A stretch of DNA of 24,721 bases. Source: a virus. Lineage: Duplodnaviria; Caudoviricetes. A program made the position numbers and the translations under genes. The notes under the pieces were generated by a model. The model did no database searches and was not told where the DNA came from. It saw only the letters and a list, made by a program, of their open reading frames with translations. Shown here piece by piece: positions 1-23,917 of the stretch (position 1 is the first letter of the stretch; each line of letters begins with the position of its first letter). The DNA lies in IMG/VR virus record IMGVR_UViG_3300010157_000238, positions 1-24,721 of that record, one strand, 5' to 3'.

Positions 1-249
1 GATTGGACGCAGAAGGTATTGGTATGCGAGGCCAAGTGCGCCAACCCACCCAATAGCAGGCCGCCAGCCACTAACAAAAATAGAAGACGATTGTGCTTCA
101 TTTGCATTCACCTGATTTTGTTGCTCATCCCAGCCCTGTAGGGATGTCCGTAGGGCTGCCTCAGCCTCCGCCCGTTGGTTTGGGTCAGGAATGAATTTGT
201 TGACGATCTGCAGGCCTGCTGAAATTGCATCATCGATGCCAAAAGCCAT
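1..249 (-). CDS. Holin, GTA-type 3TM family (partial; runs off the left edge)
   Basis: Not in the ORF track. The ATG at 249 overlaps the upstream TAA (TAATG). My translation is MAFGIDDAISAGLQIVNKFIPDPNQRAEAEAALRTSLQGWDEQQNQVNANEAQSSSIFVSGWRPAIGWVGALGLAYQYLLRPI. The KFIPDP and EA.S.S.FV.GWRPAIGWV motifs are typical of GTA_holin_3TM proteins. Confidence 0.85.
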   Translation of the reverse strand, partial: MAFGIDDAISAGLQIVNKFIPDPNQRAEAEAALRTSLQGWDEQQNQVNANEAQSSSIFVSGWRPAIGWVGALGLAYQYLLRPI

Positions 250-1811
250 TATACTTTCCCCTGTGCTATCCGAAGCGCATTTACGATATCATCGTCATGC
301 ATGTTAAGCATTTGCTTTGTACCGCCATCCAACGCCTTCTTAGCCTCTTTGAACATCCTATCCGCCTCTGGGATGCGACCGCCCGTAGAGCGCTGAGGGC
401 GATGCACGAATCCACCACGTTTTTCATGGATGTCAGTACTATTAGGGTTGAAAGTACCCTTATTACCTAAAGACGATTTGATTTGAGAGCCCTGCCCAAG
501 CACCACAGCGAGGTTCCCGCCATTCTCTTCAGGTATCCAAGCATCGTGCCCTTTGGCGCGAAGCGCATCAAACCAATCGGACTGATCTTTTTTATAGTTT
601 TCACTTTTATAAGCGGGACGCGGACCGGTGTACGGGTTTACTGCACGAATGTGGGTTGGAACAACACGACTTGCCGTGTTCATTGGTACTAAATCCCAAC
701 CATCGCGCTTATATCCTTGGCTGTCGTTTGTTGCTGCATACATTGAAGCTTCTTTTGGATCTGTCGTGAACCAAGCACCGTGACGTCCAATTTTAAACCC
801 ACCCTTCTTATTCTCGAAAGGCTGGTCTTTTGATGTCCCTGTATAGTATTGTTTTGGAGTGCTATCTGGCTCTTTCGTAAGCTGGTGAGAGCCAGAGTGC
901 CAATCGGCTAAATTCTCCTCACGCCGTGGGTCGCCGTGAGGGATAAAACCACCACCGTTATAACCGATCCTACCACCTTCAGCGCGGTGCACGAACCCGC
1001 CCTTTTCGTACCGCCGTTTAACATTCACGCGGTCATGATTAAAAACAACATAGTTTCTCGTTCCCTTTCCAACCCCACGGCTACCCTCATCAAAGTATTT
1101 GATGCCCGGTATTCCTGCTCTTTGGAAAAAGTTAGATGCGCCTTTGTACCCATGCGGGTGGCCAGCGGCGATCTCTTGATACAAATTGCCAGCTGTCTTT
1201 TCTGATTCCATATGGTCCCTAACTTTATCCCACAACGTAGGCACTTCTTTTCTGGCATTAAAAAGACTTGCCATTACACGCGGGTCTTGATCAGTCATTG
1301 GCTTATCCCAATCCAAAAAGTGATCGGGATGAGCATCAATGGCGACCTCGTACATATGGCCAGCAGGTTGATACAACTTTTTCTCATCTACATTCTCGTT
1401 CCCCAAAAAACTTTTTAATTCATAAGCATCCGGGTACGAAGCATGAGATCTTGGTCGGCCCTCACCGCCCGGAAGCGGATTGCCACTTTTATCTACCCCT
1501 TGGACCTCCACAGAATGAAGAAAATCATCATCAAATTTTGAACTCAACACTTTGTCATACGCTCGTGAAGAGGGAATCAGGTTTCCCGGTGTATAGTATT
1601 TCTTTACTAATTCGTGATAATATGGGCTTCTAGCTTGACCCGCCAATCTGTCTCTGTAGGCTTTAGCGACAGGTTCAGCTTGAGCAAAATACAAACCATG
1701 CCCATAGGCTTGAGCCCCTTCGCCCGCGCCAATCTCGCCGGTGTCAAACTTATCGAACTCATATGGAGAGCCGTGGTAAGCGGTAATGTTATTTGGTTCT
1801 TGATCGTCCAT
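249..1811 (-). CDS. 520-aa virion/ejection-associated protein with two tandem ADP-ribosyltransferase-like (ART-PolyVal-like) domains
   Basis: Domain 1 reads AYHGS..F.KF...G.GLYFA....AKAY...YEV...GIPGIKY...NYVVF. Domain 2 reads YYTGT...GAWFTTDP..A..YA...VVPTHIRAVNP...GHDA...VV...QIKSSLGNKGTFNPNSTDI. Both follow the H-Y ART pattern of polyvalent-protein ARTs. TAATG-coupled at both ends. Confidence 0.7.
   Translation of the reverse strand: MDDQEPNNITAYHGSPYEFDKFDTGEIGAGEGAQAYGHGLYFAQAEPVAKAYRDRLAGQARSPYYHELVKKYYTPGNLIPSSRAYDKVLSSKFDDDFLHSVEVQGVDKSGNPLPGGEGRPRSHASYPDAYELKSFLGNENVDEKKLYQPAGHMYEVAIDAHPDHFLDWDKPMTDQDPRVMASLFNARKEVPTLWDKVRDHMESEKTAGNLYQEIAAGHPHGYKGASNFFQRAGIPGIKYFDEGSRGVGKGTRNYVVFNHDRVNVKRRYEKGGFVHRAEGGRIGYNGGGFIPHGDPRREENLADWHSGSHQLTKEPDSTPKQYYTGTSKDQPFENKKGGFKIGRHGAWFTTDPKEASMYAATNDSQGYKRDGWDLVPMNTASRVVPTHIRAVNPYTGPRPAYKSENYKKDQSDWFDALRAKGHDAWIPEENGGNLAVVLGQGSQIKSSLGNKGTFNPNSTDIHEKRGGFVHRPQRSTGGRIPEADRMFKEAKKALDGGTKQMLNMHDDDIVNALRIAQGKV
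964..987. repeat. 24-nt direct repeat, copy 1 (ccgatcctaccaccttcagcgcgg), encoding RAEGGRIG on the minus strand
   Basis: Identical to 1902-1925, read directly from the sequence. Confidence 0.9.
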
Positions 1812-4237
1812 TACAACCTCCCACTAAATGTCGGTTCGCCCATCAACGCAGTTTGGATGTGAAAGCCGGGAATTAAACGTGCGCTGCTTGTCTCATCACC
1901 CCCGATCCTACCACCTTCAGCGCGGGCAACCGGCAATGCACCAACCGCAGCGGGGGCGTTGGCGGATAGCTTGATCATATTCTGGGCCATCGCTGACAGA
2001 AGGCGGGGGTTCTTTTGGAGCATTGCTTGAGCATCCCGGAACTGCTGAATGTCTGAAGACGCCAGCTTGTCAGCTAATCTTTTTGCATACCTAGCTCCCA
2101 TAATATGGTCAGCTATGCCGTAGGCATATTGCGCTAAAGCCAATGGCTGCGACAACAGGAAGGTTGGCACAATGCGGAGTTCGCGGAGTTTATAGTACAA
2201 AGACGGATCTGCGCGTCCAGCATTCTTGGCAACGTTTGCCAACGAATTGCGGAACAGGGATTCTGTACGTACAAAACGCTCAAGCTTCTCATAACCGTTA
2301 TTGCCAAAGATATTCTTCATGGCCTTGGCAGTGTAATTGTTGGGGTCAAAATACTTCTCAAGCATCTTGGTATTGATGCTACCGTCGCCATTGCGGGTTT
2401 TTGTCAAAAGAGATGCGAGGACACCTTGTTGGGCTAGCTCACGCTCCTTCGGGCTCATCCCAAGAGTGGCATTGAATGCATTGGTCTTTGCCAGTGTATT
2501 GCGGTCTTTATCCAGCAATCGCAAGCCGCCACTAAAAGCATCTTTCTCGCCGAAGATATCCTGCGAGTTTTTGATCGCATGATCCAACTCACGGCTGTAA
2601 GCTGGGTTAGTTTTGTCACGGATCGGGTCCATGAAAGTCTTGCCGATGCTTTGCGCTCTGCGTCCAACGCCACCTTGAGTGCTGGCACCGCTCTGGAATG
2701 ACGCATCTTGTATTGAACCAAGCTCCCTGCGGATTTGGTCAATATACTGCGTATTCATGCTGTTTTTATCAGCCAGAACCATTTTAGAAGGAGGAAGTCC
2801 TTCAATTGCTTCGCGAACCTGAGCAACAGCATCGTTTGTTTGTTTCTGCGCAGCCATCTTGGCAAACCCAGTGCTATCAGCGGGGTCTACCTTCAAGATG
2901 TTTTTCAAAGAGTTGTTATTCAGCTTGCGAAGATCATCAAACGTCTTGATGCCGTAATCATCGAATGCAGAAACGGCGTAATTTGGCATTTTTAAGTCGG
3001 ATATTGGCGTATCGCCAGTATTCATAAAAGCCGATTTGAAGTTAGGGCCAAGCTCATTTGACAGATTTGCATCTGCATTCTTGACCGCCTGATTAAAGAT
3101 TGGTTCATCAAGCAATTTGTTCCACTGAGGAAGCCACGTACCCCTGCCAAGATCAGGATTTTTGATAGGAGCCCAAGCCATCTGATTGCGTGCTTCGAAT
3201 TCACGGCGTGCATCGTCTTGAAGCTTGGCAGCGTTCAGCTCAACACCAGACATTTTTTCGGCAAAGGTATCGAAACGCTCACCCGCATCCGATAGTCTGT
3301 TCCTCATTTGCTCTATGATATCAGCAACAGCTTCAGGATCATTTTTGGCAATCTTTGAAAGAGCCTTCTGAAACTTTGGCCCGCCAATATCAGCACCCAT
3401 AATAGGCTGGCCTTCTTGTGCCGCCTTAATGAGATCGTTCATTGGTATTTTGGATGCGCCAGCTGCTTCATCCTCAAGCAAAGACTTCGACAGACTATTT
3501 AAGGCGGCATCCTTAGGAGCCACCATTGCCTTCATCCACTCAGGGGCTACCTTAGCTGCAGCCTCTCCCACCGCACCAAGACCAAGACCCAACCCCCCAC
3601 CAATAAGGGCGGATGTTCCGATATCCTGTTGCTCAGACTTTGGCTTAGAACCAATAGCCTTTTCTTCCGCCGCAGAACCGGCGCCAAGGGCTCCAGCCTC
3701 TACGCCCATGCCAGCAATGCGAGCGACTGTAGGAGCCGCTCCTAGAGCCTCCGCACCAGCCGCCACAGGTCCGGCAACTTCACCCACGAACGGGATCAAT
3801 AACTGCGAACCAATGTCCGCTGCCAGCTGAGTCTTAGGATACTCTTCCCCAGATACGCGACGTTGGGCTTCATATTGAGCCTTTAGGTCCTCACGACGCT
3901 GGCTGAAGTCCTTACCTTGTCCGTATCCAGCCGCCGCGCCGATATCAGTTGCAGCCTCGCGAACGGCAGGACCAACGCCAAGCATTTCGCCTGCTCCGGT
4001 TACAGCCGCACTCGTATAGCCGTAATCCTTGGAGCGTTGTTTCGCTTCAGGAATATGGGACTGGATTTTAGCTTCATATTCGTCAACAGGCTTAGCGGTC
4101 GCCTTGCCTGTTCTTGACGCCATAGCCTGTTCAAAGGGATCGGCTTCATTTGGTTGGTCAGAATCACTCTGGCTACTAGCCAGCTTTTTCTGCATCAAGG
4201 TATCAAATGGGTCCGCATTCGAATCATCTGTTGCCAT
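1811..4237 (-). CDS. Internal virion / DNA ejection protein (808 aa)
   Basis: Start moved to the ATG at 4237 (MATDDS), 2 nt after the upstream stop. It has an acidic N-terminus (DPFD/DPFE), an Ala/Gly-rich glycine-zipper region (ALIGGGLGLGLGAVG) and a long helical body. Its position after the nozzle and GNAT genes matches podovirus ejection proteins. Confidence 0.7.
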   Translation of the reverse strand: MATDDSNADPFDTLMQKKLASSQSDSDQPNEADPFEQAMASRTGKATAKPVDEYEAKIQSHIPEAKQRSKDYGYTSAAVTGAGEMLGVGPAVREAATDIGAAAGYGQGKDFSQRREDLKAQYEAQRRVSGEEYPKTQLAADIGSQLLIPFVGEVAGPVAAGAEALGAAPTVARIAGMGVEAGALGAGSAAEEKAIGSKPKSEQQDIGTSALIGGGLGLGLGAVGEAAAKVAPEWMKAMVAPKDAALNSLSKSLLEDEAAGASKIPMNDLIKAAQEGQPIMGADIGGPKFQKALSKIAKNDPEAVADIIEQMRNRLSDAGERFDTFAEKMSGVELNAAKLQDDARREFEARNQMAWAPIKNPDLGRGTWLPQWNKLLDEPIFNQAVKNADANLSNELGPNFKSAFMNTGDTPISDLKMPNYAVSAFDDYGIKTFDDLRKLNNNSLKNILKVDPADSTGFAKMAAQKQTNDAVAQVREAIEGLPPSKMVLADKNSMNTQYIDQIRRELGSIQDASFQSGASTQGGVGRRAQSIGKTFMDPIRDKTNPAYSRELDHAIKNSQDIFGEKDAFSGGLRLLDKDRNTLAKTNAFNATLGMSPKERELAQQGVLASLLTKTRNGDGSINTKMLEKYFDPNNYTAKAMKNIFGNNGYEKLERFVRTESLFRNSLANVAKNAGRADPSLYYKLRELRIVPTFLLSQPLALAQYAYGIADHIMGARYAKRLADKLASSDIQQFRDAQAMLQKNPRLLSAMAQNMIKLSANAPAAVGALPVARAEGGRIGGDETSSARLIPGFHIQTALMGEPTFSGRL
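1902..1925. repeat. 24-nt direct repeat, copy 2, encoding RAEGGRIG near the C-terminus of the 808-aa protein
   Basis: Identical to 964-987, including synonymous positions. Confidence 0.9.
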
Positions 4238-4239
4238 TT

Positions 4240-7200
4240 TTAGTTCACCAACCAACGGGAAAGATGCTTAACTCCGGGATAGTACTTTTGAACCTTGGCA
4301 TCAAAATCTGGCTTCGAAATGTGGCCATCCATCAATTCTGTAACCAAGTTAATGCTTCTGCCCTTAGGATTCTTCCAGCTCAAGTCTGGGCTCATAAGAT
4401 CCTGCAGGGCATTTTGTTCCTTGTTATACTGCTCTGGTGGATAGGCAGCTTGGATAGCCTGATCAACGTTCGCGCCCATACGAGCAGTCTTGCCGCCAAA
4501 GTAATTGACTGCTTGCTGAGCGTCACGAGCCATAACGCTTTGACGCATGATGCTTGTAAACACCTTGTTGGCCGACTCTGGCTCTAGAGGAGTACCCGGA
4601 AGAGCTGCTTCTGTTGCGTCAATAGTTCTAGCTGCGGCTTGATGGGAAATCGACCCAACCTGTTGGTTAGCCATCAAACGCGATATCTTTTGCAACTCTT
4701 GCGAAGCCACGACAGGATCGTCTGAGACATTATAACCAGCAATACGAGCAGCCGTTGCGGCGGCACGAATCGATGCCAACCTGAACTTGTCGCCAGCACC
4801 CATAGTACCCCAGCCATTTTGCTGAGCAATAACCAGATCATGCGCCATCGTGCTAGCATCGCCCAATGCGGTGTTAGCTATCTGAGCAGACTTGCTTGTC
4901 TCAGCTGCAGTATCTTCGAACTTGTTCTTTAAGCTTTTAGCCGTATCGGCAGAATACACAGTATTGCCAACTTGGTTCTTCAGCGTATTTGCATACTGAT
5001 CCAAGATTGAAGTTTTTTCCTGAAGAGCTTGTCCAAGCGGGGCCAGTTCAGAAGTAGACGTTGCACCACCACCTTGATCGCCAGCGCCGCCCGGTGAAGG
5101 CATATTGATGTACTTGTACTCTGGGTTTTCCGGTGTACCAGCCATGAAGAGCGCATTGCCGCCAAACGGATTTGGTGTAACACGCAATCCTTGCTCTTCA
5201 GCCCTCGTTTTGCCAGCAGTCGCTTGCGATGATTGTGCAGAACCATATTGAGCTGCGCTTTGCGCTTGGTTAAGCATCGTTTCGCGCTGTTGTTTCTGTT
5301 GCTCAAGCATGGTGTTGGCAAAACCTTGCCCTGCGCGGGAAAGGTTGGTACCGAAATCGCCACCCGAAAGAAGGTTTGCGCCAAAATTCAATGCAGCAAT
5401 TTGGCGCATATCAATTGGAGGAGGCGCGATGTAACCAAAGCCCGGCTGCGCAGCGTCAGATGTTCGACGTGTGGTATCCTGAGCAACGACATTCGTCGGA
5501 ACCCTTTGCTTAGGAGCTGTTTCTTCTTCGGTTGTGGCCAGATCCGCTGCAGTTGGCCTGTTTTTACTCACAACAGGGGTGCGTGGAGCTTTATCTGGCT
5601 GAGCTTCAACAGATGGAATAATTGGTTGAGTTTTTTCTGAAGGGAAATAAGTCCCAGTTGCCGAACGCTTTTCAGTAGGTGCCGCTATAGTATCTTGTGT
5701 ACTTGGCGCTCCCATTACCTTTTTACCCGTCTCGTATGCCCGATCAAGATCTTCCTGAGTAACGTTCTTCCCAGTCCACCAATCAAGTACACCTTTACCC
5801 ATTGGGGATAAAATGGAACCATCAGATTCTGGCTGAGCAGTGTATGCCGGTTGGTCAGGACTTGACCACATATTGTCCGAATCATCTTGAGATTTTACAG
5901 CCCCGCCGGGCTTAGGGTCACCATATCCAATGCGACCTCCCTTCGCACTTGGAAGAACACCCTTTGCAGCTAATGCTTGAAGCTGTGGACCTAGAACACC
6001 AGCACCAGAACCAGCCTCATCTGAAGCAATTTGAGAGATGTCAGATTCCGTAGGCATTCCATACATCATGCTAATAGGTGCATATCCACCGGCAGCATAG
6101 TGATGCGGATGGATACGGCCACCACGCTTTTCAGCGGAATCTGGGTCACTTGTTCTGGCATCACCAAATTGAGTATCAGCTTCAGCTTTTGCTTGAGTAT
6201 CAGCCTCTGCTTTAACATCAGCATGGTCAGCCACAGATGGGCTATTACCACGGCCACCAAGCGCACCACCAGTTTCAGAGGGAGTGTTGTTTACTTCCGA
6301 CGTTGTGCGATCAAGCCCTGCATATCCAGATCCGGGCCCATGACCTTCAGCACCAGCACTAGGGGCGGCAATATTAGAGGCAATTTGAGATAGGCCAGCA
6401 GAATATGATGGGTTAGATGGCGGCGCAGGAGGATTAGATGGATCAAACGCCGGGCTAGGAGTTGCAACAGCTCCCTTTTGATATGCGCCTTGAGAAGCCG
6501 CCATGAAATCAGCAACCGTTGCATCCATTGGAAGGCCAAAACGATTACTTGCAAAATGGCTTCCAAGGACATCTATGGCCCTTGCATTTGGATCGGCATT
6601 GGTCAAATTTTTATAACCACCTAACCCTTGATTGTAAGCAAGACCAATACTTCCAACTGTTGGATCTTTTTGTTTATTAGCAATATCGGCGGCATATTGG
6701 GCAGCACCCGTCAATGCTTGAACTGGATCAAACGGATTGGTAACACCATAAGCTTCAGCGGTTTTTGGTTGAAACTGCATTAATCCAAGGGAAGACCCAG
6801 ATTTATTAGAAGCATCTGGATTGTACGTCCCGCCAGTTTCCACATTTGCAATACCTGACAGAGTTCCTGCTGGAAGACTATTTTGAACTTCTAGATCATG
6901 TGCTAATTTAGCGTAATCACCAGTAAAACCAGCTGACCTAGAGCCGACTGCACCAAGGCCCGTTTTACTTGCAGCAAGGTCAGCCCCACCAGCCAATGGA
7001 TCAGTGATACCAGAGGTATCTTCAACAGCCGCAGGAGTACCAATAAGGCTAGGGTCAAGCTGAGTTGCTGGGATAGCGCCATAATGCAAAGCCTTGGCTA
7101 AACCATTATCCATATTAAAGAAGTCAATTTGACGTTGACCGTTTACGTTAGTAAAGCCAGCACCAACTTTGGAAAGATCGCCACCGGTAAATTGATCAGC

Positions 7201-8790
7201 CCACTGTTGAGCAGTCATGCCACTTGCAGTGTTAGGCATATCTCTGCCGCCCTGACTTGGATCAGCAACCATATTAGTCGCCATTCCGTTGGCATTGTAT
7301 GTTCCCGGACTATTGCCGTGGAACAATGCATCAAATGCACCCTTAATTCCTGTCTGAGCGCCAGTAGTTTGATCAACACCACCCATTAAACCAGTGCCAA
7401 TTTTACCAAGCAAACCCTTGGGGGCAGCAACTTCTATTGGCAAATAGCTATTGGCAGATGTGCTTGGATTAAATGTGGAGACATCTGATACGCCAGCACT
7501 TCCATCACCACCCCTCCCTGAAGTGTCAATGGCAGGAGTGGCAGGGGTCGCAGTAGCCGTGGTTGTTGGTTTTGCAGCCGTTGTAACTGCGGTGTCCGCA
7601 TAAGGTGCTGGCGCTCCAATAAATGCGTCCTTGTACTCTTGATACGCTTGATCAAGAATTGGCTTAGGAGCATGCTGGGTAACCAAAGTTTGATAACGAT
7701 TATATGCGTCTACAATACTAGAAGATGTTGGTGATCCGCCTGAAGCATAACCAACTGCTCCGCCTTGTTCGTAGTTAACGCGGCCACCCGTTTTAAGCAT
7801 GCTAAAAATTGAACCCAACCCAGATGCCGCTGCCGACATAGGGTTCGATGCAGAAATCCCGCCCGGATTTGAAAGTCCCCCAAGCATGGATAAGCCACCC
7901 AGTAGTCCGCCAGCATTGCTGACAGTGGGTGAGTACCCTGTCGTTGTTCCGCCCATAGCAGGAGCAGCACCAGAAGCGAGGCCAGCATAATAGCTAAGCT
8001 GTTGGTATGGGAATGCCTGCTGGTTCATATACTGTTGATATGCAGTTGATAGACCGGCCTGTTGCTGCTGCTGTTCTGCCGTGCCATAGCCGTATTGAGC
8101 CTGCGCTTGCTGAAGAGCCGCGTTTTGGCCTTGCGTCCCAAGATTAGCAAGATTCAAAGCGTTAGCGGATTGCAGCTGGCGGTTCTGCAATTGCGTTGCA
8201 AGACCGGTCTGCTGCTGAGTATTAAACTCACCCTGAGCCTGCGAATATCCCTGCCCAAGAAGGTTCGAGATTGTCGCATTGTTAGCAAGGTTCTGCTGAC
8301 GGGCTAGCTCAGCTTGAGCAATACCAGCACGATCACCACCAAAAGCGCCACGTTGGATAGCATTCCCCAACACTTGCTGCTGCTGCTGTGCATTGGTTTG
8401 GTTAATGTTGGCTACTGCAGACCCGACAACATCATTCAAGTATGGGTTCATATACTGATTGATATTGCCTTGGTTGAATTGCTGCATCTCTATTGGTTGA
8501 GCAGCATTTTGAACCATTTGTGAGGCTTGCTGGAATGAAGGTTGAGTACCTCCCTGCAAACCAGAAATAGTTTGACCCGCCTGAGCCTGATTAGGCGTCA
8601 TTGGGGAAAGTAGGCCAGCATTATAATTTTGGTACTGAGCAGCTGTCGCCGGTGTATATTGCGGAAATGGCTGATTAGACTGGGTTGCAGCACGACCAAG
8701 GATGTCGGTTATCGCACCCTTCACAGCCTCTGGTGGCTGATAAGATGTTGAGGCCGACGACCCAAACAGAGAACTGCATAATGAACCCAT
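4240..8790 (-). CDS. Large internal virion / DNA transfer protein with an SLT lytic transglycosylase domain (1516 aa)
   Basis: Gln-rich N-terminal region (YMNPYLNDVV...GAFGGDRAGIAQAELAR) and a Gly-rich hydrophobic segment. SLT motifs at about 6480-6920: IANVETGG.YNP.A....SLGLMQFQPKTA...NPFDP.Q...GAAQY...AYNQG. Confidence 0.8.
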   Translation of the reverse strand: MGSLCSSLFGSSASTSYQPPEAVKGAITDILGRAATQSNQPFPQYTPATAAQYQNYNAGLLSPMTPNQAQAGQTISGLQGGTQPSFQQASQMVQNAAQPIEMQQFNQGNINQYMNPYLNDVVGSAVANINQTNAQQQQQVLGNAIQRGAFGGDRAGIAQAELARQQNLANNATISNLLGQGYSQAQGEFNTQQQTGLATQLQNRQLQSANALNLANLGTQGQNAALQQAQAQYGYGTAEQQQQQAGLSTAYQQYMNQQAFPYQQLSYYAGLASGAAPAMGGTTTGYSPTVSNAGGLLGGLSMLGGLSNPGGISASNPMSAAASGLGSIFSMLKTGGRVNYEQGGAVGYASGGSPTSSSIVDAYNRYQTLVTQHAPKPILDQAYQEYKDAFIGAPAPYADTAVTTAAKPTTTATATPATPAIDTSGRGGDGSAGVSDVSTFNPSTSANSYLPIEVAAPKGLLGKIGTGLMGGVDQTTGAQTGIKGAFDALFHGNSPGTYNANGMATNMVADPSQGGRDMPNTASGMTAQQWADQFTGGDLSKVGAGFTNVNGQRQIDFFNMDNGLAKALHYGAIPATQLDPSLIGTPAAVEDTSGITDPLAGGADLAASKTGLGAVGSRSAGFTGDYAKLAHDLEVQNSLPAGTLSGIANVETGGTYNPDASNKSGSSLGLMQFQPKTAEAYGVTNPFDPVQALTGAAQYAADIANKQKDPTVGSIGLAYNQGLGGYKNLTNADPNARAIDVLGSHFASNRFGLPMDATVADFMAASQGAYQKGAVATPSPAFDPSNPPAPPSNPSYSAGLSQIASNIAAPSAGAEGHGPGSGYAGLDRTTSEVNNTPSETGGALGGRGNSPSVADHADVKAEADTQAKAEADTQFGDARTSDPDSAEKRGGRIHPHHYAAGGYAPISMMYGMPTESDISQIASDEAGSGAGVLGPQLQALAAKGVLPSAKGGRIGYGDPKPGGAVKSQDDSDNMWSSPDQPAYTAQPESDGSILSPMGKGVLDWWTGKNVTQEDLDRAYETGKKVMGAPSTQDTIAAPTEKRSATGTYFPSEKTQPIIPSVEAQPDKAPRTPVVSKNRPTAADLATTEEETAPKQRVPTNVVAQDTTRRTSDAAQPGFGYIAPPPIDMRQIAALNFGANLLSGGDFGTNLSRAGQGFANTMLEQQKQQRETMLNQAQSAAQYGSAQSSQATAGKTRAEEQGLRVTPNPFGGNALFMAGTPENPEYKYINMPSPGGAGDQGGGATSTSELAPLGQALQEKTSILDQYANTLKNQVGNTVYSADTAKSLKNKFEDTAAETSKSAQIANTALGDASTMAHDLVIAQQNGWGTMGAGDKFRLASIRAAATAARIAGYNVSDDPVVASQELQKISRLMANQQVGSISHQAAARTIDATEAALPGTPLEPESANKVFTSIMRQSVMARDAQQAVNYFGGKTARMGANVDQAIQAAYPPEQYNKEQNALQDLMSPDLSWKNPKGRSINLVTELMDGHISKPDFDAKVQKYYPGVKHLSRWLVN
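6169..6213. repeat. Imperfect tandem duplication with a 24-bp period (KAEADTQ-A-KAEADTQ)
   Basis: The units are ttgagtatcagcttcagcttttgc and ttgagtatcagcctctgcttt. Confidence 0.8.
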
Positions 8791-8801
8791 AACCTAAATC
8801 C

Positions 8802-9275
8802 TTACTGTACGTGGTTATCCGGTTTTTCATCACCGTAGTTGTAAATGAAAAACGCACCCGCTTTGCGCATCTGACGTTCCAACAGTTTGATCTTAGCTTC
8901 GGTCCGAATGTTGGAAACAATACCCATCAAAAGGGGGATTCCCACTTGATCGGAGTAACTTTTAGCAAAGGAAATTAGAGCCTTTGCCCTCGTAGACCGG
9001 CGGTACTTTGGCGCTACGAAATTGAACACATCGTTCAAACAGAACGTCTTAGAGTACCACAATTTGTCAATTACAAGACAAACCGCAGCTTCTAATTCAT
9101 CTTCACCATCAATAACGCCAATAATACCATTCTTGCCGCTAAGAACGTTAGTAACCATATCGCGAACTGCAACATAGTCCATCTCAAACAAACCATTTTC
9201 TTCATGCATTAACGCAAGAAGATCCATGATGTTGTCTGCATCCTCAACGGTAGCAAGCCTAACATTATAGTCCAT
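8802..9275 (-). CDS. GNAT-family acyltransferase-like virion assembly protein (157 aa)
   Basis: N-terminal VRLATVEDAD and the acyl-CoA motif A region FVAPKYRRSTRAKALISFA. It lies just upstream of the ejection genes, like T7 gp13 or P22 gp14. Confidence 0.8.
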   Translation of the reverse strand: MDYNVRLATVEDADNIMDLLALMHEENGLFEMDYVAVRDMVTNVLSGKNGIIGVIDGEDELEAAVCLVIDKLWYSKTFCLNDVFNFVAPKYRRSTRAKALISFAKSYSDQVGIPLLMGIVSNIRTEAKIKLLERQMRKAGAFFIYNYGDEKPDNHVQ

Positions 9276-11110
9276 TAATCTCTCCTTGGTCCGGGAAGCT
9301 TGTTAAGGGTTTTAACAAGATGCTTCCGAACGTGCTTAACAAACTCATCTAACTTATCGTGGCCTTTATTGATGTCGCCGTTACCGAAGCGTTCGACCTC
9401 ATCGGGATCAATAACATACTCACCACCAGCCGCAACAATAGGAACAGGACGGCGATTACCAGACATTACTGGGCCGCCATGAGCTTCTTTTTTGGTTGGG
9501 ATAGGCGGATTAAACATCTGCTGCATTTTGCTATATTGGTCTAGACCCGGATAATCTGGGGCGCGGAAAGAAACACCTTTTCCGCTTGTTCCAAAAGGAC
9601 CGCTATTAAACATATTAGCCATCAACGCTGAGCCAGCAAGATCCTCGCCGTTAACTCCCATTGCTATATCGCCCGGAAGAGTGCGCGAGCTTTGCAAAAA
9701 GTCTGTTTTTTTGCTGGTTCCAATTGTTGGCCCGCCAGATGCTTTGTGTGCAGGGCGGCCAGCAAACATGTGATCAACGACCTTTGAGCCAGCCATTGTA
9801 TTGCCCTCACCTAATGCCGAAACAATATCGGCAGGGAGGACATATGATCCCTCACGGACGTGCATTGGGAGATGGTCAGTGCGCCCCCCTACAGCCATGT
9901 TAATGAGGCCGGTATGGCACGGAGTAGCCTTCTCACGAGAAATCTTGTGAGCAGCGTCAATAGCCCCGCCAGAAGCCATCTGTTGGTCATCTTTCTGGCT
10001 GTTTGGGTCGTACATAAGAGGATTTGCGCCGGGGGTTTCATAAGCGCCACGGACAAAACGTTGGGTTCCGGTCATTTCTGCCGGTTCCCAAATACGAGAA
10101 ACATAGTCAGGATTTAGTTTTGACGTATCAGCCCCGACGCCAAGGCGTTGCATACCACCGCCACCGCTATTCCCGCCACGTTCAGGCTGAGTGTAATAAA
10201 TGGCTTGCTGCAGTTTTTGACCCGGAAACAACTTCTTAGCTTCGCCCAACGATCCCGGACGGGTATCATTTGGATCATTGTTTAAAAACTGACCAGAATC
10301 TTCCTGTGCACTTGTATCATGCAATGGCGGCTTTAAGCCCTGCGGAGCGCGAGCCGTAGTCAATGGCGGAGGAGTAGGCGAAGCAGAGATAGTTCTATCC
10401 GAAGCTGGTACGGGTGCTAGCATATGAGCGCGACCAGTCGATGGCGTCATATTGGCAACGCGACTATCTGGGCCGGGAATCGCCTGATAAACATTAGCAT
10501 TTGGTGCAACGCGAGGGCCAGCATTCGGGTCTAAAGCACGAATAACACGAGCGTCAGCGCCCTGCGCGGTCGCCGGTAACTTTGTTTCCGTTCCCGTATC
10601 GTCTTCCGTATCAAGACCGGCCAATGTCCTCGCTAATGCATCAGTTGGCTGCTGGCGTGTGGGGGCAGGAGCTGATGCGATTGGAGCCCTATTGCGCATG
10701 AACGATGGCATAGGCACTTCTGCGCCCGGAGGCGTGTATACAGGCGCACGAGACTGCTGTGGGGGGTAATAAGGAATGTAATCTGGGGCAAAAGAGCCGC
10801 CTTCATCTGGGCGGTTAGGAACATATGGACGCGGCGCAGGACCATAATCCGTTCCAGTGTGAACGTTAGTAGGTGCGTAACGCTGAATGCGATTGGGATT
10901 ACGGGGTGAAGGAGGAAATCCCATTGCCGCAAAGACAGAATTGTAAAAATCTTGCATGCCTTCAGGGGGAATAAGCGTAGATGGGTCAGCCTGCTGGGAT
11001 GGTCCAACCATACCTAATGACTTAAAGATATTTTGATATAACTTTGGTAACGAAGGAAGCTGAGAGCCTCCGCTTGTTAAATCATCATCGTGGTGTAGTC
11101 TATTCGCCAT
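9275..11110 (-). CDS. Pro-rich internal virion protein with a duplicated C-terminal G(E/S)YV domain (611 aa)
   Basis: GGAGG RBS upstream. About 380 aa of low-complexity Pro-rich sequence, then two related units (LPMHVREGSYVLPADIVSALGEG and VPIVAAGGEYVIDPDEVERFGNG) interleaved with ASGG/AHGG motifs. Confidence 0.65.
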   Translation of the reverse strand: MANRLHHDDDLTSGGSQLPSLPKLYQNIFKSLGMVGPSQQADPSTLIPPEGMQDFYNSVFAAMGFPPSPRNPNRIQRYAPTNVHTGTDYGPAPRPYVPNRPDEGGSFAPDYIPYYPPQQSRAPVYTPPGAEVPMPSFMRNRAPIASAPAPTRQQPTDALARTLAGLDTEDDTGTETKLPATAQGADARVIRALDPNAGPRVAPNANVYQAIPGPDSRVANMTPSTGRAHMLAPVPASDRTISASPTPPPLTTARAPQGLKPPLHDTSAQEDSGQFLNNDPNDTRPGSLGEAKKLFPGQKLQQAIYYTQPERGGNSGGGGMQRLGVGADTSKLNPDYVSRIWEPAEMTGTQRFVRGAYETPGANPLMYDPNSQKDDQQMASGGAIDAAHKISREKATPCHTGLINMAVGGRTDHLPMHVREGSYVLPADIVSALGEGNTMAGSKVVDHMFAGRPAHKASGGPTIGTSKKTDFLQSSRTLPGDIAMGVNGEDLAGSALMANMFNSGPFGTSGKGVSFRAPDYPGLDQYSKMQQMFNPPIPTKKEAHGGPVMSGNRRPVPIVAAGGEYVIDPDEVERFGNGDINKGHDKLDEFVKHVRKHLVKTLNKLPGPRRD

Positions 11111-11533: not shown

Positions 11534-13638
11534 CAGTACTTCCCATCAGGTGCTGCGCGATAACGAATACCACCAAGCCGCCAGAATGTCCCAACGTCTT
11601 GTGAGGATATGCTAACTGCGATTAGACGCGCTCTAATGCGGCAAGAGATATATTCTGTCGCTTGAGTCATGGGGAACGTAGCAGAATAAACTGAGTTGCT
11701 GGGCATTCCGGAATAAGATCCGGTCGTTACCGTTGCATCACCAGCATAGTTTGTCCAATACAACGTGACATAAACCGTAGCATTTTGGTTGCCGCTGTAT
11801 GTTCCCCATTTCATGTCAGGCCAAATTTGGTCAACAAACATAATTTGGTCACCCTCAGCGATGCTGAAGAAGCCGGTTTGCATTGCGGAGTTCATTGCCG
11901 TTGTCGTCGTCCCGCTGGCAGCATCGTTCCCTATTTCGTGCTGATATAGAAAGTTATCAGACCCAGAACCAATGGGAGGCCCAAGAACAGATTGATCAAT
12001 CCAAGCAGTGCGGCCAAGAGAACCAAAGTCCCATTGGTTGAGAACTGTGCTATACTTGACATACGAATCATTTTCACCAGTGCTTTTAGATGATGGGTAA
12101 AACCACATCACTTCATTGAACTGAGAATTAACAGCGCAACGAATGTGTTGCGTATATGGGATACCGTTGCTGTCGTTACCTGCTTTAAGGTTTTGGAACA
12201 CTACGTCCCAAACAGGGCATGGAAGCGGCTTAGGGCCATCCCCTGCGTTCACAAAGAACTGCTTCTGTGACATCCAATAGATGACATTGCCTAGCTGACC
12301 GACGCACTTGCGGCTAATAGCTCCACAGTTGGAGCCAATTTTGTTGAAACCGTATACAAGTGGAGCGCCAATGTATTGCATAGACCATAGATCAAGGTCG
12401 GTCCAAATCAGACCCTGTTGCGGTCCTTGAATGCAAGTAACGATCCTTGAACCTTGAGGGATACGATATGATCCAGCTTGGTTCGTGGCGGTAGCAATCC
12501 AAGTCGTGCTATCAGCGACATCGGACCACCGAATCAGCAATGGATCTGCTTGAAGCGTAAAAGAAGATCCCCAAGCGACGACTTGACGCTGTGGCATAGC
12601 TACAAAGATACCATCGTTGACCAGTGGAGAGGTCTGTCCAACTATTTGGGCATTTTGTAATGCACCTTCTGGGTTCCAATAGTAAATTGGTCCGCCAGTC
12701 GGGTTTGCAATTAAAAACTCACCAAAGTTATCAAGGGACCAATCTGTCGCCGTTATGGCTGTTCCGGGTACAGAAGCTTGAGTCGTACCAACGCCAAAGC
12801 CACCCGTTCCATACCCACCAACACCAAAACCTGTTCCTTGAGGCTGCGGACCAATGGCAATGTAATAAGTTGAGTTGATATTACCGCTATTGATGGAAGT
12901 AGCACCAACGGTGGATGTGGCGCTGTTCGCAGCTGAAAACGTAAAGGTGTTAGCGTTTGTAACTGACAAGACTGTATAAAGACCAAATAATGTAACGCCA
13001 CCAATAGTAATGGATACTCCAACATAAAAGTTGCTTCCAACAGAGTATCCGTGGTTGTTCAAAACAGCCGTGATAACGCTTGAACCACTGGTAGTAGCAA
13101 AAGTATATGATGCACCGCCGCTTGTCACCGTAGAAGCTGCAGCTGCGGGGGCGATTATCGAGTAAGAAGTACCAGCCGCAGTTTGAATCAAATACGACCC
13201 AGTCAAAACTACTCCGCCTACAGAAACTGGGGTTACGTAGTTTACATAATCAAGAACAGAAGCTGTGATGTTGGAATCAACCACATTCACCGTTGTCGAG
13301 CCAGCAACCGTCGAGAAATTAGGGGCAGTGTTGGTTGTTGATGTTTGTGGCGTTATGTTGATGCTATTGTTTCCGGTCAAAACGTTTAATGACGTTTCAG
13401 CACCCACTGCTAAATGGTTAACCGCGAGTAAGTCTGCCCAGCCCTTTAAGGCACGGATTGTAGACGAATACGCAGAGTTAAAATAAGACACCCAGCCGCC
13501 AAGCTTCTGTACAAGACCAAGGTTATTGCGGTCTGGCATAAAACGAACAAGGTTTGTTGAGGATAGGGCAGCCTCGTTCAACGTTGGTGTTTTGATTACA
13601 TCGACGCCCGGAACCAGTTTAAGTGTTGTATGTGCCAT
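11533..13638 (-). CDS. Tail nozzle / DNA stabilization protein, P22 gp10-like (701 aa)
   Basis: Beta-propeller-like motifs: LKLVPGV, NLVRF...QKLGGW, WSLDNFGEFLIA, DPLLIRWSD, NQAGSYRI, LIWTD, CGAIS..C, EVMWFYPS, W.FGSLGRTAW.D, RIRARL...WRLG. It follows an adaptor gene. Confidence 0.75.
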   Translation of the reverse strand: MAHTTLKLVPGVDVIKTPTLNEAALSSTNLVRFMPDRNNLGLVQKLGGWVSYFNSAYSSTIRALKGWADLLAVNHLAVGAETSLNVLTGNNSINITPQTSTTNTAPNFSTVAGSTTVNVVDSNITASVLDYVNYVTPVSVGGVVLTGSYLIQTAAGTSYSIIAPAAAASTVTSGGASYTFATTSGSSVITAVLNNHGYSVGSNFYVGVSITIGGVTLFGLYTVLSVTNANTFTFSAANSATSTVGATSINSGNINSTYYIAIGPQPQGTGFGVGGYGTGGFGVGTTQASVPGTAITATDWSLDNFGEFLIANPTGGPIYYWNPEGALQNAQIVGQTSPLVNDGIFVAMPQRQVVAWGSSFTLQADPLLIRWSDVADSTTWIATATNQAGSYRIPQGSRIVTCIQGPQQGLIWTDLDLWSMQYIGAPLVYGFNKIGSNCGAISRKCVGQLGNVIYWMSQKQFFVNAGDGPKPLPCPVWDVVFQNLKAGNDSNGIPYTQHIRCAVNSQFNEVMWFYPSSKSTGENDSYVKYSTVLNQWDFGSLGRTAWIDQSVLGPPIGSGSDNFLYQHEIGNDAASGTTTTAMNSAMQTGFFSIAEGDQIMFVDQIWPDMKWGTYSGNQNATVYVTLYWTNYAGDATVTTGSYSGMPSNSVYSATFPMTQATEYISCRIRARLIAVSISSQDVGTFWRLGGIRYRAAPDGKY

Positions 13639-22583: not shown

Positions 22584-23318
22584 TTAAACCCCAGTGAGCG
22601 GTATTTGAGCATAATTATTAGGTATACCAATCAAGGCGGTTACCATGAGAGTGCTACCCTGTAGCAATCCTCCCACTGGTATAGCACTGTTTACTTGATA
22701 GGTGAAGACTGTAGCAGTCGTAACAGTAACACTATAGAACCCATCTGCTAGTTTATTTGACAAACCTTCAACGGCAATTTGATCATTAGTACTTAAACCG
22801 TGAGAAGAAGAAAAAGTTACCGTTATGGTACTCGTTCCAGATTGGGATGTGACTGATAATGGGTTGAGTGTTACCCGATACGTTTTATTGTTAATCAACG
22901 GCATAACTGCACTCTGGTCCAACCCAATAGGGCGGCCAGCTGTTTGGGTCGTAACGCTGACACCGTCTTCCGTTATGATATCAATTGTTGATGGTATTGG
23001 AATGCCTGTCCAAAAATCTGTGACAGTTGGAGCGCTGATTGAAATATTGTTGGTATTGTACAGATCATACGAATCTGGACGTGCGTTCAACACAGGAATT
23101 GGATCTTGTGTAGTCAAGATTGGCTTCAGCTGAGCCTGTGGCTTGTCATAGCACTTATCGCAGACCAAAAACCTCAGGTTTTGCAACTGAGGACCACGAT
23201 AATCAAACTGAAACTTAAGCGTTTTGTGGTTATAAATGAAACCACAACGGTCGCACCGCCCCCATGCGGATGGTGCGCTTGGATTAGCAAAAGCGTGGCC
23301 GTGGGGGCGGTACGCCAT
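22584..23318 (-). CDS. Structural protein with an N-terminal CxxC...CxxC zinc-ribbon-like motif and a C-terminal small beta domain (244 aa)
   Basis: Start moved to 23318 (MAYRPHG), which overlaps the endonuclease stop as TAATG. Contains CDRCG...VCDKCYD.PQ and a C-terminal TITVT....HGL...D.I.V.G.....G.Y.V.V.....FTY. Confidence 0.7.
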   Translation of the reverse strand: MAYRPHGHAFANPSAPSAWGRCDRCGFIYNHKTLKFQFDYRGPQLQNLRFLVCDKCYDKPQAQLKPILTTQDPIPVLNARPDSYDLYNTNNISISAPTVTDFWTGIPIPSTIDIITEDGVSVTTQTAGRPIGLDQSAVMPLINNKTYRVTLNPLSVTSQSGTSTITVTFSSSHGLSTNDQIAVEGLSNKLADGFYSVTVTTATVFTYQVNSAIPVGGLLQGSTLMVTALIGIPNNYAQIPLTGV

Positions 23319-23917
23319 TAGTGCAAAGCCCCCATTTGCCTTTGTGCATAAGTTTCGCGAAGGGCGGCTGTAATTTTTGCCTGATGTTCTGGCGTGCGGG
23401 GTTTCTTTTTGCCCTTGTGCGCAGCTGATATTTTTGCCCGCCATTCAGGAGATTTGCTTTGACCTTTTTTAACAAAAGACATCTTTGCGCGGTACTCTGG
23501 CGTTGTATTTACGCGTTGCGCCGTTTCTTTTATTTTTTTCCGCCTTTCATCCGAAAGAGGCTTTCCTTTCTTCTTCTCAGACAACAACCGTTTTGTTTCT
23601 TCTGTGTGCTTGGTACCCCTCGCCCCCTCGCCGCCAGAGGCCAGATTGTACTCTGGGTTTAATTCGGCAATCAGCCTAATTTCTGCTGCGATCATCTCAT
23701 CAACGCTTGCATGGGTTTCCAATATCTCCCAAGAAAAAGCGTCTTCACCATATTTGCGAATTGCTGCGTGAAACTTGGGGCAGCTTCCTCCATTTGAAAA
23801 TTTAGCCCGTGCCTTCGCATAATGATTGGATTTACGATATGACAAACCACGGGATGTAACGCCAATATAGCGGTTCCCATTTATAATGTTTGTCGCTACG
23901 TAAACTACGTAAGTCAT
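23318..23917 (-). CDS. Free-standing GIY-YIG homing endonuclease with NUMOD3 DNA-binding repeats (199 aa)
   Basis: YVVYVATNIINGNRYIGVT, conserved R (YRKSNH), AIRKYG..F, E (AAEIRLI) and YN. NUMOD3-like segments KHTEETKRLLSEKKKGK and KSPEWRAKISAAHKGK. Confidence 0.9.
   Translation of the reverse strand: MTYVVYVATNIINGNRYIGVTSRGLSYRKSNHYAKARAKFSNGGSCPKFHAAIRKYGEDAFSWEILETHASVDEMIAAEIRLIAELNPEYNLASGGEGARGTKHTEETKRLLSEKKKGKPLSDERRKKIKETAQRVNTTPEYRAKMSFVKKGQSKSPEWRAKISAAHKGKKKPRTPEHQAKITAALRETYAQRQMGALH

Follow-up and report, generated by a model that had tools for sequence, protein, structure and literature searches.

The four large predicted ejection proteins of a tailed phage are punctuated by a short peptide of the form [A/K]-x-G-G, which is a real and widespread signal. 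The window analysed here is the whole of IMG/VR record IMGVR_UViG_3300010157_000238 (Duplodnaviria; Caudoviricetes; 24,721 nt), and the four proteins (520, 808, 1516 and 611 aa), the adaptor, the fibres, the nozzle and a GNAT acetyltransferase are all encoded on its minus strand. The position of the four genes after the nozzle gene and a match to a PHROG annotated as DNA ejection protein (E = 7e-12) suggest that their products are internal proteins that are ejected. In the explanation that we prefer, and to which we give an even chance, they are cargo polyproteins carried inside the head, with modules joined at the motif sites, and would be cut during particle assembly just before the Ala/Lys of the motif, not after the two glycines. 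Each cassette, whether an ART, SLT or ejection domain or a basic peptide, would then come free and begin with A/K-x-G-G as its new N-terminus, and the same peptide may also help loading before the cut, as the targeting leader of T4 does. Head location and cutting are both things that we infer, and the cut position is placed by analogy with T5 pb2, the loading role by analogy with T4.

The peptides from which the first-pass annotation had derived a shared xxGG(R/F)(I/V) signal (RSTGGRI, HEKRGGFVHR, RAEGGRIG, SAKGGRIGYG and others) were each recovered at their minus-strand positions, and the consensus is better written as [RYFHKM]-[A/K]-x-G-G-[R/K/x]-[V/A/T/I]. A tandem with an 8-residue period is the commonest arrangement (59 of 551 spacings). 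With a profile trained on 74 sites from six related genomes (threshold score >5), 14 GG sites were scored in the four proteins and none in 15 other picked open reading frames (ORFs) of the window; one of the 14 (AVGGRT, aa 406 of the 611-aa protein) belongs to a domain core and is not a joint. A second, strict profile drew its 350 training sites solely from two basic head-region families of other phages, without ejection proteins (threshold >0). Of the GG sites it scored 10 of 57 in the four proteins and, in the remaining proteins of the window, 0 of 47 (Fisher p = 0.002), and shuffling in 30-residue blocks gave 0.35 expected sites, with never more than 4 in 2000 shuffles. The motif therefore exceeds what Gly-rich sequence would yield by chance, a source also ruled out by the tail fibres, which are equally or more Gly-rich and lack any site. 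Counting against enrichment, a rank test across all GG sites was not significant (p = 0.078), implying that most GGs in the four proteins are ordinary. The 808-aa protein alone, with its single site, gave p = 0.085, and RSTGGRI, MASGGAI, YEQGGAV and YASGGSP scored below zero with the strict profile. It had also been claimed that the four proteins share no further similarity and that the adaptor and nozzle lack the motif; both points were borne out (best BLAST E value 0.034, driven by the motif), and the capsid and portal proteins lack it as well. No description of the motif was found in the literature searched, which took in few subscription papers.

The sites lie at joints between shuffled cassettes. 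Among 39 distinct homologs of the 1516-aa protein (at least 530 aa), a site falls at aa 300-525 in 37, at aa 310-365 in 28 and before aa 300 in none, so that positions are conserved in this family, and single sites are kept at fixed positions in homologs that are 25-40% identical. In 89 non-redundant large carriers, 129 of 820 BLAST alignment ends lie within 15 aa of a motif site versus 53 expected (2.4-fold), and other GGs are found near alignment ends at 0.91-fold of expectation. Both ART cassettes of the 520-aa protein recur, bounded by motifs, in post-portal proteins of relatives; in L175 their order is reversed, between sites 57, 226 and 519/528, and single ART cassettes (G002, L102, L115, L127) each end at a site. 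This shuffling supports the idea, already put forward in the first-pass annotation, of separable and swappable cassettes between sites. Its claim that motifs gather at domain borders stood for the ART cassettes, which sites bound, and more loosely for the SLT domain, where the sites lie ~280 aa before and ~150 aa after it. The second ART-PolyVal domain is above the Pfam cut-off (E = 2e-9) and the first below it (E = 7e-6), and the SLT domain is above the cut-off when the fragment is scanned. The first joint of the 1516-aa protein is a processing region in kin, because 6 of the 16 homologs scanned have a Peptidase_S74 auto-processing domain immediately ahead of their first motif; this domain is absent from the copy in the window.

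Several relatives have a single ORF that comprises the 808-aa homolog and the 46 C-terminal residues of the 520-aa protein, and in the window an exact 24-nt direct repeat (964-987 and 1902-1925) covers both RAEGGRI motifs. Together these suggest that a cassette was recently inserted at the motif, probably splitting one gene into the 808- and 520-aa ORFs. The repeat could also mean that the motif is an evolutionary seam, a flexible turn at which a short DNA repeat allows in-frame recombination of cassettes with no specific reader. Such a seam is in keeping with the movement of ART cassettes between gene blocks and with close variants of the crassvirus crAss001 cargo protein gp45 that delete whole motif-to-motif blocks (15 of 120 matches aligned), but the repeat is the only pair of sites sharing at least 17 nt in 7 genomes. 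Elsewhere the codons differ while the peptide is kept, and the strong conservation of the non-glycine positions, like the fixed single sites in distant homologs, makes us consider a seam unlikely.

Proteases of the GG|X type, such as the adenovirus and ubiquitin-like ones, are cysteine proteases that cut directly after GG; no protease of this type was found. The predicted position of the cut comes from tape-measure maturation. According to the accessible parts of two reports, pb2 of phage T5 is cut after R1127 as determined by intact mass (PMC10038345, PMC11937500). The sequence at this place is PR|AEGG...GEHG, so that the motif peptide begins exactly at the cut, and RAEGG occurs twice in the window. 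Residues 1128-1219 amount to 9702 Da, as reported, versus 9387 Da recomputed for a cut after GG, which rules out the latter for T5 pb2 only. If the proteins of the window are cut as in T5, the cut would fall two residues before the glycines and not at or after them. The cut site of lambda gpH, with pieces of ~78 and 14 kDa, is given as unknown in the accessible part of PMC12617516; a cut at F733|ATGG...GEFV would give 79.8 and 12.5 kDa. The accessible part of PMC11972413 supports only the generality of tape-measure cleavage. The likeness to this kind of maturation thus lies in AxGG at the reported T5 cut, in ATGG...GEFV...ATGG near the expected lambda cut and in the link of the 611-aa domain to tape-measure proteins through Caulobacter phage GB2A described below. 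Unlike these phages, the present one has a short-tailed module without a tape measure, many proteins without the domain carry the motif, and the domain is duplicated.

A further parallel is the crassvirus cargo protein C1 (gp45, PF25725, PDB 7QOG chain M), which is likewise an internal cargo encoded after a nozzle-like gene and bears the same peptide punctuation. The lead came from ESM Atlas, where unnamed viral clusters and, weakly, crAss_CARG1 (0.79) were returned. Homology of the 611-aa domain to crAss_CARG1 was not confirmed (hhalign probability <1%), PF25725 had no match in the 611-aa protein or in 118 family members, and 7QOG chain M was not among the results of four PDB fold searches with models of the domain; the lead brought out the motif in gp45. 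There, 7 of 9 [A/K]xGG matches are joint-type sites, while gp46-gp50 have no [A/K]xGG. In the accessible part of PMC10172136, which does not describe the motif, a portal-bound piece (425-552) and a tail-bound piece (214-245) of gp45 are resolved by cryo-electron microscopy. The first has the Ala of N|AFGG as its first residue and stops short of the following site (560), the second sits between sites 207 and 261, and none of the four gp45 mass spectrometry peptides quoted in that part spans a site. GG motifs also flank the C1 domain in distant crassviruses (6 sequences aligned). Matrix-assisted laser desorption/ionization (MALDI) data for 13 crAss001 bands in the accessible supplement of PMC6235969 were re-read against 22 proteins of the genome stretch retrieved, with minor and contaminant peaks dropped by eye. 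gp45 accounted for no band (0-3 matches in the 11 bands that were scored in detail, 4/76 in band 3 and none in band 1). The motif-free gp47, gp49 and gp50 appeared at full size, the 77-100 kDa bands were assigned to gp23, gp25 and gp26, and bands 5 and 10 are unassigned.

In relatives the motif is a mark of three gene blocks, of which the ejection module is only one. Across 943 ORFs from 80 loci with the capsid gene at their centre (not independent, since the capsid proteins are 88-97% identical) it occurs in 61/61 small His-rich post-capsid proteins, 44/44 basic post-portal proteins, most large variable post-portal proteins and 1/57 members of a 383-aa family, and in 0/77 capsid, 0/61 scaffold-like, 0/17 portal and 0/39 adaptor proteins. 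For the small His-rich protein, GenBank phages yielded no match. In six longer genomes, site densities per 1000 aa are 7.3 post-portal, 26.2 post-capsid, 2.7 in the ejection block and 0.09 in 321 other ORFs, figures that are partly circular since the profile was trained on the same genomes. The proposal of an ejection-module signal therefore holds in so far as the motif is shared by likely internal proteins, and fails as to specificity, which is ruled out by the higher density in the basic post-portal and post-capsid proteins. Two conserved, unannotated and motif-rich proteins, seen in L083 (G001), are candidate internal head proteins: a basic repeat protein that follows the portal block (5659-7056) and, behind the capsid genes, a His/Lys-rich protein of 134 aa (12087-12488).

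The same restriction to likely internal proteins suits the main rival explanation, in which the motif is an uncleaved docking tag, comparable to an encapsulin cargo peptide, whose repeated copies bind the prohead interior (capsid, scaffold, portal) or the duplicated domain and load unrelated proteins. Avidity would account for the multi-copy, tandem arrangement, a few sites are at the very C-terminus (GB2A gp065, an MW202545 protein, cr108), and the motif-led C1 domain binds the portal wing according to the accessible part of PMC10172136. One tag per protein would be enough, yet every cassette is flanked by sites; the last site lies within 20 aa of the C-terminus in only 4 of 224 distinct complete motif-bearing proteins, and the register of the T5 cut is left unexplained. 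We regard a docking tag as possible, at clearly less than an even chance. Lys, Arg, His and Gly are abundant in the proteins with the highest motif density, and a GNAT gene lies inside the module, which could point to a DNA-binding or condensing basic repeat or to a histone-tail-like site for the neighbouring acetyltransferase. This is very unlikely in our judgement: the large cargo proteins have Ala rather than Lys at the key position in 61% of sites, many sites are neutral or acidic, and CRP-901 and Octadecabacter virus 2 have an annotated acetyltransferase at this place and no motif in virion proteins.

The C-terminal 230 aa of the 611-aa protein form a duplicated domain in which the motif leads each half. 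We found 3,397 homologs among 3,573 candidates (2,262 representatives at 50% clustering), with GRTDH, GGEY and His and Asp residues invariant. Both halves have an AxGG and G[E/S]-[Y/F]-V core, and an [A/K]xGG is found 28-84 aa upstream of the first core in 209 of 269 homologs. The domain has no convincing Pfam family and no solved relative by sequence. Two AlphaFold models are confident (pLDDT 83 and 85.5), the motif residues being the least confident part of the first; Foldseek gave no PDB match at E ≤ 0.001, the best VIA scores were Z 5.3, for the N-terminal helix pair only, and then Z 3.0, and a viral structure library at E ≤ 0.001 returned only uncharacterised phage proteins. The lack of a PDB match indicates neither a new fold nor the absence of an enzyme. 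The domain profile matches single-copy units in GB2A gp065 (E = 9e-10) and MinM2, and the GB2A unit in turn matches tape-measure PHROGs (E = 1e-8 to 3e-7), three of them at profile positions also matched by lambda gpH; compared directly with tape-measure PHROGs, a few of 118 family members gave E = 0.0015-0.1. The duplicated domain thus appears related to tape-measure C-termini by way of the GB2A unit.

Among nine annotated relatives (five of the genomes, like MW202545 and MinM2, were covered only in large part), four have the domain and HTVC023P a weak match to it, with none found in CRP-901, phiM5, Octadecabacter virus 2 or MJing1. In these last four, annotated capsid-region and ejection proteins are free of the motif; isolated scores, one each, occur in two tail-region ORFs of MJing1 and in one polymerase. 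In GB2A and DSL-LC04 the domain is present, with hardly any free motif. The co-occurrence fits a link between domain and motif in a sample that is small and not phylogenetically independent. The least supported part of our proposal is that the domain reads or cuts the motif in other proteins; what makes it a candidate is only its position, its co-occurrence with the motif and its invariant polar residues. It is doubtful, but conceivable, that the domain is an undescribed protease or N-terminus reader, acting on A/K-x-G-G in cis in tape-measure proteins and in trans on all head cargo of this clade. Compact homologs of the 611-aa protein begin with a 43-aa helix pair (phrog_2423; L013 12579-12710), which other phages encode as a small protein on its own. 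Several post-portal cargo proteins seem to open with similar helices, which may be a second targeting element.

Several points weigh against cargo polyproteins cut before Ala/Lys. Cleavage in this phage and its clade is putative, and the T5 site is itself disputed (an older estimate, V1148, is given in the accessible part of PMC11937520) and scores poorly with the profiles used. The residue before the predicted cut is very variable, which is unusual for a protease, and copies in 8-residue tandem, like the up to 12 copies in basic proteins, would be more than cutting requires. Among 15 head-region proteins of a relative (G002; several of them are unannotated, and the window lacks this region) no protease family came up, and cutting at every site would split the domain of the 611-aa protein itself. 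The accessible part of PMC10172136 treats gp45 as one continuous chain and never mentions cleavage; the motif-free gp46 is likewise missing from the MALDI bands, so that the absence of gp45 there is weak evidence. The domain gave no significant direct match to lambda (E = 0.25-0.63) and none to T5 pb2 or crAss C1, and its link to these three therefore rests on a 5-residue pattern.

Short peptides on internal proteins are known from the T4 capsid targeting sequence with gp21 and from SPN3US gp245 (AXE-), as described in the accessible parts of PMC9026906 and PMC10052503. As in these systems, the present peptide is shared by unrelated, often basic, probably internal proteins, and may serve for targeting and/or cutting. 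Unlike their N-terminal propeptides, which are cut after Glu by an identified prohead protease, the sites here are internal and repeated: the first ones are at aa 269, 773, 333 and 379 of the four proteins, and no motif position has a conserved Glu. Here too, as in polyvalent proteins (Iyer et al., 2017; PMC5512222, accessible part), ART-PolyVal, ddrB-ParB, SLT and lysozyme cassettes stand in large virion-region proteins; ART-PolyVal (PF18760) is found above cut-off in the multidomain 520-aa protein. For processing, the accessible part of that paper invokes MPTase or assemblin domains; it contains neither "GG motif" nor "diglycine". No Pfam match to an MPTase or assemblin peptidase was obtained in the window proteins or in 30 proteins of relatives.

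The selection of internal cargo by short-tailed phages is largely open, and the accessible part of PMC12617516 states that neither the manner nor the place of lambda gpH cutting is known. In cultured phages our explanation predicts cuts before A734 of lambda gpH, at seven sites of crAss001 gp45 and before A496 of GB2A gp065. The pieces of gp45 would measure 21.3, 6.0, 7.4, 4.4, 6.0, 15.1, 28.9 and 1.8 kDa; in the present phage the 157-kDa protein would yield pieces of 34, 54 and 60 kDa, and the 58-kDa protein ART pieces of 30 and 20 kDa. The motif would let the cargo of thousands of uncultured phages be read as lists of cassettes, and if it is a loading tag it would be a candidate means of bringing proteins of choice into phage heads. 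If the duplicated domain is the reader or protease, one maturation code would serve lambda, T5 and crassviruses as well as uncultured short-tailed phages, a very large group, and the activity that cuts tape-measure proteins, which has long been missing, would have a name.

Features of the cargo module in the window and, in the last row, of relatives
Feature	Coordinates	Strand	Remarks
520-aa cargo protein: ART-like cassette 1 (aa 1-268), triple motif, ART-PolyVal cassette 2, double motif, conserved C-terminal module	249..1811	-	
Three tandem motifs YEKGGFV, RAEGGRI, YNGGGFI, 8-residue period	942..1010	-	
ART-PolyVal domain, aa 318-454 of 520-aa protein	450..860	-	Pfam PF18760
Motif pair EKRGGFV and RSTGGRI in 520-aa protein	372..425	-	RSTGGRI scores weakly, aligns with RATGGRI in homologs
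C-terminal module of 520-aa protein, ~46 aa, starting at motif	252..392	-	58-73% identity to relatives
808-aa predicted ejection protein, one motif near C-terminus	1811..4237	-	phrog_5880
RAEGGRI motif of 808-aa protein	1902..1925	-	Exact 24-nt DNA repeat of 964-987
1516-aa predicted DNA-ejection protein: conserved N-domain (aa 10-316), motif cluster, SLT-bearing cassette, motif cluster, C-terminal part	4240..8790	-	phrog_4287
Three tandem motifs LKTGGRV, YEQGGAV, YASGGSP closing conserved N-domain of 1516-aa protein	7729..7797	-	
SLT lytic transglycosylase domain, aa 634-731 of 1516-aa protein	6598..6891	-	PF01464, E = 9e-11
Motif pair EKRGGRI, YAAGGYA in 1516-aa protein	6079..6132	-	
Motif SAKGGRI in 1516-aa protein	5929..5949	-	
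GNAT acetyltransferase within module, without GG	8802..9275	-	phrog_1249
611-aa protein: variable N-part and constant C-terminal duplicated domain	9275..11110	-	
Duplicated motif-led domain of 611-aa protein (AxGG...GRTDH...GSYV...AxGG...GGEYV)	9278..9976	-	Insert starts at KASGG, 9725-9745
Sites leading each half of the duplicated domain	9959-9979 and 9467-9487	-	
Peptidase_S74 carriers	L013 13727-16549; also L017, L031, L034, L050, L076		Inside DNA-ejection protein

The C-terminal module of the 520-aa protein had no match in Pfam or PHROG. Relatives of the nozzle were found in MW202675, DSL-LC04, CRP-901/902, HTVC023P and MinM2; the last ejection-block protein of MinM2 (2803 aa; L098 15886-24297), annotated RelA/SpoT, is without a motif site. 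Near-complete kin of the phage have 50-60 kb genomes with a Mu gpT-like capsid protein, which has no solved relative by sequence. A GroES-like co-chaperonin is encoded between the cargo block and the scaffold-like gene (L086 11094-11525; G002) and is present in every near relative inspected. In G002 and G005 the adaptor match falls into two parts. In the window, a 199-aa ORF (23318-23917) between the adaptor and the next virion gene, which has 2 GG and was not part of the GG scoring, resembles a GIY-YIG homing endonuclease by eye.

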